From: an uncultured Candidatus Saccharibacteria bacterium
GTDB lineage: Bacteria > Patescibacteriota > UBA1384 > CAILIB01 > JAUSJZ01
Direction: 5' to 3'
Assembly (NCBI GenBank): GCA_964421635.1
Contig: CAYQWZ010000002.1
Coordinates: forward strand, 65,749 to 129,748
DNA length: 64,000 nucleotides
Under the pieces are notes generated by a model. That model did no database searches. It was not told where the DNA came from and saw nothing but the letters and a program-made list of their open reading frames with translations. Of this stretch, positions 55,001 through 60,846 are shown piece after piece (position 1 is the stretch's first letter; every line of letters starts with the position of its first letter). Both the position numbers and the translations under genes were made by a program.

Positions 55001-56383
55001 TTGGCTATAATTGAATTAATGAAGAAACTATTTTTGTTGTTAGGATTATCTTTGGTGGTGAGTTTGGTTATGATTGGGGGAAAAGTATCAGCTATAACGA
55101 CAGTTCCTGTTGAGATAGCTGGCCCAACATCTAGTATTCAATACGGGGGAGTAAATTATTTATTAAGGATTATTAATTTTGCAGATCATATTGAGCCAGA
55201 CTCGCCAGGAATAACATGGTTTATTTTTGTGAAAAATTCTGATTTCAGTGAGGCTAGCGGTAAAAGAACTACAGCCACAGCAATTTTAGTTTCAGACAAT
55301 AAGCTGAATCTACATGAGCAAGACCCTATAACATATTCATTAGATTCAAAACCTATTCTTAGTGAGATTGAAATTGATATGCAGCTGAAAGATGATGGTG
55401 AAATGTATTATCGTTTTAAGCGATTTGTCAGTGGTCAAGGGGGAAATCAACCAAACAACATTAGAATAATGGCTGATAGTTATAAGTCATTATTAGATTC
55501 CATGCAAAGTAGGAATAGTGCACCTCCTGGCGGAGAACATTATAATTTAAGTAGTGCACTTATTGAAAATATTAATTCCACTTCAAGAGCAAAAGTATAT
55601 TATGCAAATGGTGAAGGCTCGGGTACTGTAGGAATTGAATCAAAAGATGTAGTAATGATTTTTGGAAAACCAAGTGGTAATAATAATATTTACGAGCCAG
55701 ATAATAGCCTTAGGGTTTTAATGAGCGCTTCAAATGCTTATGATGCTAAAGCTCTAGTTTTGAAATTTAATTTTGAAGATAGCAATTGGGATACTGCTGA
55801 ATTTAAATTGTATTTCATTAAAATGGTTCCCCCTGATACCTATTTGTATTTTGCTCCTATTGGAGAAGCCCTTAGTGGAAATCCAGGTTTCTTTCATAAA
55901 TATGATAAGGTACCTCTTTTAAGAGTGAAGGATTCAGAATTAGATAAAGCAGCTGGTCAGCAAAAAATAGGTAATATAGTCTATGCACAAGTTAAAACTG
56001 GTCAAATTAAGGATAATGCTGAAGGCTGGGGTGGAATAGTAATTGATCAAGAAACTACAGAATCATCCTTTAAAATATCTAATTCTCACACAGATTCTTT
56101 TTTAACTTTTCTTAGAGGTGATAACCCAGTGAGAGAAGAGGGCAAATCATATGCATTAAATCCTGATCGAGTATGGGGAGCGCATTTGGCGAATGGGTCA
56201 AATCTTGATGGAAGTCAGACCGATATTGAATTAGTTGGCGATACTACTCTTTCAAATATCAGAGATGTTTTAGCAGAAGGAGATGAGTGTGGCTCAGTTA
56301 CACAAAATCCTATCGGTTGGGCTATGTGTAAAATGCTTACATTTATGATTGATGCACTACTATCTCTTCTAAACCTAGCCTAG
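55001..56383 (+). CDS. Hypothetical secreted protein (460 aa) with signal peptide; first gene of a four-gene operon of unknown function.
   Basis: MKKLFLLLGLSLVVSLVMIGGKVSA signal peptide. The mature protein is Asn/Ser/Gly-rich with no recognised motif and ends with a short hydrophobic C-terminus MCKMLTFMIDALLSLLNLA. It starts 8 nt after valS. Confidence 0.5.
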   Translation: MAIIELMKKLFLLLGLSLVVSLVMIGGKVSAITTVPVEIAGPTSSIQYGGVNYLLRIINFADHIEPDSPGITWFIFVKNSDFSEASGKRTTATAILVSDNKLNLHEQDPITYSLDSKPILSEIEIDMQLKDDGEMYYRFKRFVSGQGGNQPNNIRIMADSYKSLLDSMQSRNSAPPGGEHYNLSSALIENINSTSRAKVYYANGEGSGTVGIESKDVVMIFGKPSGNNNIYEPDNSLRVLMSASNAYDAKALVLKFNFEDSNWDTAEFKLYFIKMVPPDTYLYFAPIGEALSGNPGFFHKYDKVPLLRVKDSELDKAAGQQKIGNIVYAQVKTGQIKDNAEGWGGIVIDQETTESSFKISNSHTDSFLTFLRGDNPVREEGKSYALNPDRVWGAHLANGSNLDGSQTDIELVGDTTLSNIRDVLAEGDECGSVTQNPIGWAMCKMLTFMIDALLSLLNLA

Positions 56384-56402
56384 TTCTTGCTAAAATAGCT
56401 AT

Positions 56403-59656: not shown

Positions 59657-60846
59657 TAACAGATAAAACCAGAACAAAAACTGTTGAAGAGATTGACCAG
59701 ATGGCTGGGGAAGTCTTATCTATCTCAGATGAGAAGTTTTTGACGCTACTAAAGAGTGATTATCAAAGAGCAGCTAAATTTGTGCCAGAGTTAGAATCTT
59801 ATTTAGCTAATGAAATCAACTTTATTTTATCTGAAAATAAAGAAAATCTAGATTTTGTATCTCCTTATGAGAAGTACGAACTGATTAAGAAGTTATCAGT
59901 AAGTAAAGCTGAGAAGAATAAAGAGCTATCTGGTAAATCTAAGATAATTATTAAAGGTCTTGAGCGGTCAGCTATGATAGCTACAAAAAGTGCCGCAGAT
60001 AGAGCCATAGAGAGCTTTTCAATTATTAAAAGTAGATATGATCTGAAGAATAAAGACATTATTGCTGCAAAAAGTAAAAAATCGCTATTTGTGTATGACA
60101 CTATGAGAGAGCTTTTAGCGACACTTGCTTACATTGAAGCAGTTACAGTAGGATTCACGAAGATGTCTAGAATAAAAAAAGATGCGCTGGTTAGTGTTGA
60201 AGTGATTGAGGGTATAGTTAATACAACCATTGAACTTTTCAAAGAAGAGGGAATATTTATTCCGGTTGTTATGAAGACCTTAGATGAACAGAAAAATCCT
60301 TATATATTAATTCAGTATGCCCAAGATTTGGTCATAATTTTTGATGTTATTCAAGAGAGAAGGGAGAAGACAACAGAACTAGATATCAGAAGAAAAGTGG
60401 CTGATGAAGCTAGGCACGAAGACCTTGTTGATAGAACAAATAAATGGATAATGATTTTAGCTGAAATTGAGGCGGCAAAAGAAGAGCTAGCAACCCCCTT
60501 AGCGAAAAAAATCAGCTCTTATTTAGAGAAAGGATTACTCGGAAGTGGTAAGCTGTATGACACGCTCAAGCAAAGATATGATCAGACCACAAAATTACAG
60601 AAAGCAAGAATTAGATTTATTATTTATAGACTTATTACCACTAATAGTACCTCGAGCAAAAATAGCAATATTAATATTTCGGCTATATTTGTAAGAATTT
60701 ACGCTGCATACAGACAAAATCCAGATGTTGAAGTGCCAGCTATATTGTCAAATCTTCAAAAAGAACAAGTTATTGTATCGGCAGAAAATAGCCAAATTAG
60801 TTCAATTGTTAAAGAGTTATTACTGATTGTAAAACTTCTGTTCTAG
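59653..60846 (+). CDS. Hypothetical cytoplasmic, mostly helical protein (397 aa), translationally coupled to the upstream membrane protein.
   Basis: The ATGA overlap at 59653..59656 links it to the previous gene. No TM and no recognised motif. Lys/Glu/Ile-rich. Confidence 0.45.
   Translation: MITDKTRTKTVEEIDQMAGEVLSISDEKFLTLLKSDYQRAAKFVPELESYLANEINFILSENKENLDFVSPYEKYELIKKLSVSKAEKNKELSGKSKIIIKGLERSAMIATKSAADRAIESFSIIKSRYDLKNKDIIAAKSKKSLFVYDTMRELLATLAYIEAVTVGFTKMSRIKKDALVSVEVIEGIVNTTIELFKEEGIFIPVVMKTLDEQKNPYILIQYAQDLVIIFDVIQERREKTTELDIRRKVADEARHEDLVDRTNKWIMILAEIEAAKEELATPLAKKISSYLEKGLLGSGKLYDTLKQRYDQTTKLQKARIRFIIYRLITTNSTSSKNSNINISAIFVRIYAAYRQNPDVEVPAILSNLQKEQVIVSAENSQISSIVKELLLIVKLLF

Follow-up and report, generated by a model that had tools for sequence, protein, structure and literature searches.

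Directly downstream of the valine-tRNA ligase gene valS, an uncultured Candidatus Saccharibacteria bacterium carries four consecutive genes, which raise the question of what kind of apparatus their products form. The genes, termed here g460, g151, g933 and g397 after the length of their products in amino acids (aa), are located on contig CAYQWZ010000002.1 in a stretch of 64,000 nucleotides, which was analysed as a whole and is referred to as the window; positions are numbered from its first nucleotide. A first-pass annotation of this DNA had found no recognisable family and no assignable motif among the four products, and had noted a VirB6/TrbL-like topology of the 933-aa protein. Our analysis favours, with a probability of roughly 0.65, the interpretation that g933 is a lineage-specific VirB6 (TrbL) subunit of the Patescibacteria type IV secretion system (T4SS), which is encoded on the chromosome away from the ATPase genes and together with three dedicated partners.

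Homology of g933

Hydropathy analysis of g933 yielded an apparently cleavable signal peptide (residues 1–29, cleavage between AFA and Q after residue 29), followed by about five hydrophobic transmembrane (TM) helices at residues ~87–112, 181–240 (two helices), 250–274 and 277–304. The helices of an AlphaFold2 (AF2) model agree with these positions. At least five TM helices and a cytoplasmic C-terminus characterise the VirB6/TrbL superfamily, and g933 in its predicted orientation shows the same arrangement. The protein had previously been described as having seven TM helices; its polytopic nature was confirmed, while the count has to be replaced by a signal peptide and about five helices. The long charged cytoplasmic tail was found as described before, with 32% K/R/E/D and mostly long helices. 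A small alpha/beta element is present in it at about residues 613–700, and its predicted local distance difference test (pLDDT) values in the AF2 model range from 40 to 89.

The sole Pfam match of g933 is PF04610 (TrbL/VirB6), obtained with an E-value of 1.4e-5 over profile positions 25–207 (183 of 215 covered). The precomputed annotation of an identical database protein also records TrbL/VirB6, and the relative P0003 carries TrbL_3. TrbL matches were obtained for 8 of the 45 family members scanned (best E = 1.2e-7), and no other family recurs. When a profile of the TM core comprising 24 sequences was run against 177,635 PDB sequences, the only significant sequence was TrwI, the VirB6 protein of plasmid R388 (E = 0.0021). 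The alignment spans the conserved R...PL...P-T...F..W block with the invariant residues R213, P225, P234/T236 and W243. A full-length family profile had returned coiled-coil noise only from the PDB sequences; TrwI was obtained upon restriction to the TM core.

The AF2 model was built with 64 family sequences and has pLDDT values of 80–97 in the core. The top seven matches in a Foldseek search of the PDB were all TrwI/VirB6 chains, with probabilities of 0.94–1.00, ~260 aligned columns and TM-scores of 0.41–0.51 per target; all later matches had probabilities of 0.3 or below. As judged from the model, the polytopic core of g933 appears to have the VirB6 fold. No transporter or channel family was found at E ≤ 1 in Pfam and NCBIfam. 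An identity as mechanosensitive channel or transporter was dropped due to the lack of matches, as was a function as defence system, for which no PADLOC match was obtained.

Since these individually weak lines of evidence all point to one family and to nothing else, the remote homology of g933 to VirB6/TrbL is regarded as established. The resemblance noted before on the basis of topology is hence raised to homology by the Pfam match, the Foldseek result, the TM-core profile and the T4SS context of the relatives described below. A homology to a non-secretion family was looked for and not found, and the statement that no family can be recognised proved to be wrong for this protein.

The VirB6-like family of Patescibacteria

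The family is very large and belongs to Patescibacteria, mainly to Saccharibacteria. HMMER searches with a 6-sequence profile returned 21,989 cluster representatives (clusters of 50% identity) at E ≤ 1e-3 and 5,347 at E ≤ 1e-30. Most members have a length of 1000–1300 aa, with a TM core beginning at about residue 400–600. In alignments of 113 and 64 members, the core residues N90, K116, N130, S132, R213, P225, P234 and W243 are invariant; g933 possesses the conserved TM core including these residues and is thus a member of the family. Scanning one genome per species, we found 352 relatives, and about 73 of the best 80 are labelled as Saccharibacteria or its genera. The identity of the relatives to g933 is 24–31% and is confined to residues ~60–450. 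Saccharibacteria-type VirB6-like genes were also observed in assemblies labelled Oscillospiraceae and Lachnospiraceae (L049 and L079), which are probably mis-binned or contaminating Saccharibacterial contigs.

Patescibacteria T4SS are described as chromosomal, MPF-FATA-like and usually lacking a relaxase, and as essential for the epibiotic growth of S. epibionticum (PMC12102498, PMC10633639, PMC12857230). A virB6 homologue is listed among the essential genes in PMC12102498, which cites a transposon sequencing (Tn-seq) study. According to the same source, standard profiles detect 480 VirB6 homologues, of which 304 are located near virB4, and 2,474 virB4 genes. The function of the Saccharibacterial T4SS is given as still unknown (PMC10633639, PMC11665869).

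The genomic contexts of the relatives of g933 include such systems. In the neighbourhood of P0006, there are five genes for T4SS pilins, along with PrgI, a TraC-like gene and another large gene downstream, which served as VirB4 seed for hidden Markov models (HMMs); P0005 is located near four T4SS pilin genes. Based on HMMs built iteratively from Saccharibacterial VirB4, TraC-like, PrgI and pilin genes, 36 of the 80 best loci encode at least one of these components no more than 10 kb away from the VirB6-like gene, and the other 44 encode none in this range. Several assemblies hold one T4SS-embedded copy and one or two orphan copies.

Two further observations concern such orphan copies. Three loci from Nanosyncoccaceae/Saccharibacteria (L025, L032 and L048) contain tandem arrays of five divergent VirB6-like paralogues, located at about 3.5–18.3 kb of each locus, with neither VirB4 nor pilins within 10 kb. 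In L008, two genes come after an orphan VirB6-like gene (positions 11817–17120). The product of the first (1008 aa) has no assigned family, and that of the second (758 aa) combines phage-tail-lysozyme with VanY-like peptidase domains. This second protein may be a VirB1-like wall hydrolase, so some of the apparent orphans may carry more T4SS-like partners than the HMMs detect.

The copy in the window is an orphan, since neither the window nor its flanks contain T4SS genes. Pfam scans of 30 other window open reading frames (ORFs) revealed no VirB4, VirD4, relaxase, T4SS pilin or PrgI, but housekeeping, cell-wall, polysaccharide, chaperone and competence genes along with several large family-less proteins. 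The VirB4, TraC-like and PrgI HMMs matched none of the window ORFs of at least 50 aa, and the pilin HMM, with 159 matches in the related loci, had none in the window. The absence of VirB4, VirD4 and relaxase reported before is supported by both approaches. T4SS genes were also not found beyond the window, in 10 kb at the 3′ end and ~7 kb at the 5′ end. Clusters of Patescibacteria T4SS have been defined by components within 20 coding sequences of virB4 (PMC12102498). The window copy lacks both a nearby virB4, TrsD/TraC-like or PrgI/VirB3 gene and an adjacent array of VirB2-like pilins.

A rare clade with conserved gene order

Neighbour-joining analysis of 114 TM cores places g933 only with the metagenomic sequences L089, L005 and L088, in a clade that forms a long branch outside of the Saccharibacterial diversity. 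As no other close relatives turned up among 5.8 billion proteins, 185,579 species genomes and 241 million metagenome records, the clade is considered rare (four lineages). Scanning of metagenomes for additional members yielded a single short contig.

The order 460-like, 151-like, 933-like and 397-like gene is kept in every lineage of the clade that could be examined. L005 contains, in this order, a 151-like gene (E = 2e-25), a 933-like gene (34% identity), a 397-like gene (E = 5e-58) and a homologue of g380, the gene downstream of the operon. L088 features the C-terminus of a 460-like gene followed by 151-like (E = 1e-32), 933-like and 397-like genes (E = 1e-5). In the 5′ flank of the L089 lineage (L090), the C-terminus of a 460-like gene is followed by a 151-like gene, which overlaps with the 933-like gene by the same TCATGA. 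The ORFs of the block are intact and co-conserved at 31–58% identity in the other lineages. The expectation that the four genes are conserved together in relatives is therefore borne out in L005, L088 and L089/L090, whereas homologues of g460, g151 and g397 were not detected beside other members of the family.

Based on these positions, g151 and g397 are probably clade-specific partners of the VirB6-like protein: homologues of g151 lie immediately upstream of it in L005, L088 and L090, and homologues of g397 directly after it in L005 and L088. By hydropathy, g151 has one N-terminal hydrophobic segment, either cleaved or serving as anchor, followed by a helical domain, and g397 has no TM or hydrophobic segment. 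Pfam gave sub-threshold noise only for g151. For g397, no match was obtained in Pfam, NCBIfam or the PDB sequences, and word-indexed homologue searches, whether with the single sequence or with a profile of three sequences, recovered nothing but g397 itself. Comparison of the g151 and g397 families with canonical ectodomains, with tails and with a common neighbour family of Saccharibacterial VirB6-like genes (hhalign) revealed no relation. An origin of g397 as split-off distal tail is unsupported, since canonical tails were included in this comparison. The tail of g933 itself is similar to L088/L089 at residues 457–587 and to L005 up to residue 790. No relation to the tails of the wider family was detected by hhalign, and the tail is therefore treated as clade-specific.

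The Cys-loop and a proposed gene fission

Immediately ahead of the TM core, members of the family carry a segment C-Y-x-x-S-G-x-L-G-W-I-x-C-P, to which an amphipathic helix and L-x-I-P are attached. Both cysteines, the glycine and the tryptophan of this Cys-loop are nearly invariant across the family. The signature C-x(8-12)-GW-x2-C(P) occurs in 72 of 11,034 ORFs of the loci, and 55 of these 72 are among the 116 VirB6-like ORFs. The remaining matches are copies of g460, short junk frames and one 720-aa ORF in L072. With a slightly relaxed pattern, 73 of the 110 other VirB6-like ORFs were seen to contain the loop ahead of the core, most of the rest showing variants. It is also present in copies from T4SS clusters that have only ~100–160 residues before the core. 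The Cys-loop is thus a handy signature for recognising the family; the available parts of published work on Patescibacteria T4SS contain no mention of it, although no search was aimed at it.

The signature is absent from all four VirB6-like ORFs of the window clade, which contain no cysteine there at all. In g933, the Cys-loop and helix do not precede the TM core in the same polypeptide, and the sequence resumes at "ILHEDNKGEYGWVETMW", the counterpart of "INPVE.KDGAPIYEIW" of the family. The upstream gene g460, however, ends with ECGSVTQNPIGWAMCKMLTFMIDALLSLLNLA, where its only two cysteines are located. The same loop is found at the ends of the upstream genes in L090 (QCGSITEKPIGWAMCKMFLFLIDAMLAILS) and L088 (KCGGTPSPREIINWIPCFLAELSYRLFYGLMKWPLDS), and hence in 3/3 visible upstream genes of the clade. 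When the g460 family was compared with a profile of 75 canonical ectodomains by hhalign, the best local match was the Cys-loop (P = 0.007), placing g460 residues 426–443 on template positions 469–485 of 505; controls had P-values of 0.07–0.86.

Hydropathy of g460 reveals one N-terminal hydrophobic segment, a signal peptide comprising residues 1–31 with cleavage between VSA and I. No family was found for it in Pfam, NCBIfam, PHROG or PADLOC. Full-length copies were found only in this species, and the counterparts in L088 and L090 are seen as C-terminal fragments. A low-confidence model suggests that the protein is beta-rich.

As the g933 clade lacks the Cys-loop while the upstream 460-aa gene ends with it, we infer a gene fission. 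Comparison of the sequences gives good support for an ancestral VirB6-like gene having been split just after the connector helix, with the core half gaining a new signal peptide. We propose that g460 represents the detached ectodomain module of a VirB6-like protein. The canonical polypeptide of the family would consist of signal peptide, variable ectodomain or linker, Cys-loop and amphipathic helix, TM core and cytoplasmic tail. After the split, signal peptide, ectodomain and Cys-loop helix would have remained with g460, and g933 would comprise a new signal peptide, the core and the tail. In L008, the best genome match and a canonical long orphan, the VirB6-like gene is located 3.6 kb behind valS and close to a FemAB gene, an arrangement similar to that of the window. 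Being a single case, this is only suggestive of positional orthology with the window locus.

Proposed function and alternative interpretations

TrwI, the VirB6 protein of R388, forms the base of the stalk. By analogy, g933 may be exported via Sec and oligomerise in the membrane as a VirB6-type platform. The putatively disulfide-bonded C-terminal loop and helix of g460 could dock on the outer face of this platform, so that a presumably fast-evolving and, as modelled, beta-rich domain would be displayed at the cell surface. The helical protein g151, possibly anchored in the membrane, may assist in assembly, and g397 may bind the 600-aa cytoplasmic tail of g933, with translational coupling matching the amounts of both proteins. 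Most likely, the module would connect to a VirB4-driven T4SS whose genes lie elsewhere in the genome and provide an alternative contact or channel subunit for the interface with the host cell, in parallel to the multiple extended VirB6 paralogues of Rickettsiales.

Several points weigh against this interpretation. With 25.4 bits, the PF04610 match is 0.5 bit short of the gathering cut-off of 25.9, and the Foldseek E-values of ~1e-2 and moderate TM-scores characterise the homology as remote. The fission model is built on a short motif, and a simple split does not explain why g151 sits between the supposed halves. Although g460 ranks first of 498 window ORFs against family profiles of the Cys-loop region and of the N-terminal ectodomain, the E-values of 1.5 and 0.87 are not significant alone. 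No similarity of its ectodomain to those of the relatives was detectable, and its single-sequence AF2 model is unusable (mean pLDDT 37.6). No family could be assigned to g151 or g397. VirB4, pilin and PrgI genes are absent from about −62 kb to +10 kb of the block; its involvement in a T4SS is hence deduced from the analogy with the relatives.

This absence of ATPase, pilin and PrgI genes in ~72 kb around the operon also favours the alternative that fares best, a stand-alone envelope module. An exapted VirB6 scaffold would then work without VirB4/VirD4 ATPase, for instance as membrane anchor of a variable adhesin (g460) used in host attachment, or as a channel that is passive or assisted by Sec. 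Dedicated partners are part of the block, T4SS genes are likewise distant in 44 of 80 relatives, and the five paralogues of the tandem arrays exceed the apparent need of a single T4SS. In addition, ~22,000 clusters are set against 480 VirB6 homologues beside 2,474 virB4 genes (PMC12102498). However, no protein of the VirB6 family is known to work without a VirB4 ATPase (PMC12857230). A complete T4SS cluster is also present in assemblies that contain orphan copies, and in Rickettsiales it is normal for T4SS genes to be dispersed. Copies from T4SS clusters have the same invariant core residues, suggesting the same core activity. We therefore consider a stand-alone module unlikely, albeit deserving of attention. 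The suggestion of a categorically distinct machine in the first-pass annotation is not supported, since the protein belongs to the described VirB6 lineage of Patescibacteria T4SS (PMC12102498, PMC10633639) and the genomes of relatives pair orphan copies with a complete T4SS.

It is very improbable that the similarity to VirB6 is convergent or spurious and g933 an unrelated polytopic protein with a coiled-coil tail, for instance a mechanosensitive-type channel or a transporter. The single scores are weak (Pfam just below threshold, Foldseek E-values of ~1e-2, TrbL in only 8 of 45 relatives), but three independent methods converge on one family and nothing else, relatives are embedded in bona fide T4SS clusters and no transporter or channel family appears at E ≤ 1.

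Gene layout and transcription

The ORFs of 460, 151, 933 and 397 aa on the + strand were confirmed at the positions reported before (Table 1), with a gap of 8 nt between the valS stop codon and the TTG start codon of g460. The earlier assignment of the four products also stands: a secreted protein, a small membrane/helical one, a polytopic one whose cytoplasmic helical tail is long, and a helical protein of the cytoplasm. The spacing between g460 and g151 is 19 nt and not 20 nt as given before, while the ATGA overlaps are present at two junctions, g151/g933 and g933/g397. These overlaps and the short gaps are in line with a single tightly coupled operon. For g460, an ATG at position 55019 (MKKLF...) is an equally plausible start, with which the signal peptide would be more typical.

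Table 1 Features of the locus in the window; positions in nucleotides, residues in amino acids
Feature	Position	Strand	Description	Basis
valS	52842..54992	+	valine-tRNA ligase	Pfam tRNA-synt_1/Anticodon_1 on identical gene in L001
g460	55001..56383	+	460 aa, TTG start; predicted Sec-secreted, beta-rich surface protein	
g460 C-terminal Cys-loop and hydrophobic helix	56288..56380	+	residues 430–460, ECGSVTQNPIGWAMCKMLTFMIDALLSLLNLA	family signature match
g151	56403..56858	+	151 aa, GTG start; N-terminal TM/signal segment, helical domain of ~120 aa resembling tetratricopeptide repeats (TPR-like)	
g933	56855..59656	+	933 aa, ATG start; extended VirB6/TrbL-type polytopic membrane protein	
g933 VirB6-like TM core	57062..57844	+	residues 70–330	Pfam, AF2, Foldseek, core profile
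g933 Pfam TrbL match	57197–57727	+	residues 115–291	PF04610
g933 cytoplasmic tail	57845..59653	+	residues 331–933	composition, AF2 secondary structure
g397	59653..60846	+	397 aa, ATG start; cytoplasmic all-helical protein	
GC-rich unit	60849..62149	+	promoter 60849–60877, g380 60941–62083, terminator 62128–62149	

The same four genes were predicted by independent gene callers on four metagenome contigs of identical sequence. Their G + C content at third codon positions (GC3) is uniform (0.22–0.34) and similar to that of the adjoining housekeeping genes. Because of this uniformity and the syntenic homologues of the 151-, 933- and 397-aa proteins in other lineages, the four ORFs are considered genuine genes and not chance ORFs. 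No sigma-70-like or other promoter-like site was found by scanning the 8-nt gap between valS and g460, and valS and the four-gene block are probably located on one transcript, perhaps together with tsaD. Directly after the stop codon of g397, a near-consensus promoter (TTGACT-17-TATAAT with upstream TG) is present, so g397 is regarded as the end of the operon.

The operon shows no sign of acquisition: its composition is host-like, a repeat search found no flanking repeats around the block, and neither plasmids (tblastn of g933 and g380) nor phages (tblastn of g380) yielded a match. A scan of viral contigs also revealed no relatives. NCBIfam, PHROGs and PADLOC gave nothing meaningful for the four proteins and g380. 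An Rfam scan of the region from 51 to 64 kb returned one sub-threshold match, which is located on a terminator hairpin.

The GC-rich neighbour g380

The promoter following g397 belongs to the adjacent gene g380, which encodes a protein with 4–5 TM helices and a soluble C-terminal domain. Its G + C content is 0.57 and its GC3 0.69, compared to 0.22–0.34 for the operon, and its terminator is a 9-bp GC-rich hairpin. No match was obtained in plasmids and phages (tblastn), and no family in Pfam. In L005, a homologue (positions 4374–5546 of that locus) occupies the same position after the 397-like gene and shares 32% identity over 139 aa of the membrane part. It likewise features a perfect promoter (12/12), a GC3 of 0.74 and a strong terminator, and the divergence between both genes is comparable to that of the operon genes. 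Since position, promoter/terminator arrangement and divergence agree, g380 is not recent foreign cargo, but an old, conserved and separately transcribed neighbour outside of the operon transcript. Its conserved GC-richness in AT-rich genomes could be due to an origin from the host (Actinobacteria) or to selection on the mRNA.

The view of this GC-rich cassette as cargo of the same acquisition as the operon is contradicted by its own promoter and terminator, the conserved counterpart in L005 and the lack of signs of acquisition in the operon. A decaying or silent remainder of foreign DNA, such as an integrated conjugative element, with the GC-rich gene co-acquired, is the least probable of all alternatives: VirB6/TrbL proteins are typical of conjugative elements and the G + C content jumps abruptly from 0.36 to 0.57 directly downstream, but the four genes resemble the housekeeping genes around them in composition and GC3, the first gene starts only 8 nt after valS, flanking repeats, integrase, relaxase and tRNA target are absent, plasmid, phage and viral collections gave no match, the ORFs are intact and co-conserved, and the GC-rich gene is conserved in position and architecture in L005. 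A remnant of a prophage or integrative conjugative element is largely refuted by these intact co-conserved ORFs, the host-like composition and the lack of repeats and mobile-element matches.

Other features of the window

A proposed link of the operon to DNA uptake via ComEC found no support; nothing connects the two, and ComEC is located 36 kb away on the opposite strand. It is present as two ORFs on the − strand (16918–18983), one with the Competence/DUF4131 part (17784–18983) and the other with the metallo-beta-lactamase part (16918–17952). As mechanically called, the two ORFs overlap by 169 nt, which may reflect a true split or a frameshift.

At window positions 101–5542 and in L091 (3598–12691), co-oriented, tightly packed genes encode family-less proteins of 978, 945, 117, 94 and 896 aa. 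This run adjoins a polysaccharide-synthesis cluster with glycosyltransferases and Wzx/Wzy-like genes and may represent another surface structure. A 1043-aa ORF without Pfam family (30418–33549) lies in a GC-richer stretch (0.46 versus ~0.39) just downstream of a tRNA cluster (two tRNA-Met and tRNA-Glu, 29590–30067).

Comparison with known systems

The closest known counterparts of g933 are VirB6 proteins of Saccharibacteria T4SS (S. epibionticum SEML1_0006-0019; PMC10633639, PMC12102498), which belong to the same family by profile and have the same invariant residues. Their monoderm, ultra-small and probably epibiotic way of life is shared by the window organism. These relatives adjoin pilin arrays, PrgI, TraC-like genes and VirB4, whereas the window copy does not. 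Other distinguishing characteristics are the long-branched clade of g933, the Cys-loop and helix moved to the upstream gene, and the private partners g151, g397 and g380, which were undetected beside other members of the family.

With TrwI/VirB6 of R388 and PF04610, g933 shares the polytopic core and the cytoplasmic C-terminus; the core-profile and structure matches are to TrwI/VirB6, and the Pfam match, close to the threshold, spans most of the domain. The identity to TrwI is only ~15%, and g933 differs by its cleavable signal peptide and 600-aa cytoplasmic tail. An outer-membrane complex, VirB5 and a relaxase context are missing, and the gene is chromosomal and located beside housekeeping genes.

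Extended VirB6 proteins of Rickettsiales (Rickettsia RvhB6a-e, Anaplasma VirB6-1 to -4) resemble g933 in combining the core with a large hydrophilic extension (PMC7648143, PMC12857230). As in the relatives of g933, several divergent paralogues occur per genome, with genes away from virB4; up to five tandem copies were observed in relatives of g933, which itself has an extension of 600 aa and was seen on one contig. Both lineages depend obligately on a host and have reduced genomes, and a role in host-specific interaction has been proposed for the extended VirB6 proteins. In contrast to the window organism, Rickettsiales are diderm Alphaproteobacteria, their copies are usually arranged in tandem near other rvh genes, and no split ectodomain gene is known from them.

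In PrgH of pCF10 and TcpH of pCW3 from monoderm T4SS, a polytopic domain at the N-terminus precedes a long C-terminal domain in the cytoplasm, and g933 shares this layout, as the first-pass annotation had noted. However, both are plasmid-borne together with a relaxase and a coupling protein, and no sequence match to g933 was obtained. The PrgH profile matches only 12 of 480 patescibacterial VirB6 homologues (PMC12102498).

Implications

Taken together, the locus adds an orphan, apparently split form with private partners to the known VirB6 lineage of Patescibacteria T4SS. Four "hypothetical proteins" become a testable T4SS-related module, and the family gains the Cys-loop as signature. Standard searches undercount VirB6, as is evident from the comparison of 480 homologues in PMC12102498 with ~22,000 clusters in this study. 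Many copies of the family are orphans with variable outer domains, and one rare clade apparently has a separate gene for the outer domain, accompanied by dedicated partners.

A more far-reaching conception, which we consider doubtful, is that the VirB6 scaffold has radiated in Patescibacteria into tens of thousands of clusters, often with several copies in one tiny genome, and that most members are not components of the canonical T4SS cluster. They would be modular, ATPase-independent devices for surface display or host contact, built from a conserved membrane core, a connector locked by a disulfide and a hypervariable ectodomain, and the window clade would be the first with a separate, exchangeable connector-ectodomain subunit and cytoplasmic partner proteins of its own. 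If true, this would constitute a new kind of envelope apparatus, derived from type IV secretion but no longer part of it.

Because ectodomain and membrane core can be expressed or deleted separately, the split version provides a natural handle for testing. If orphan modules are indeed responsible for host specificity or constitute the contact channel, they would be candidate determinants of the parasite–host pairings among ultra-small bacteria.

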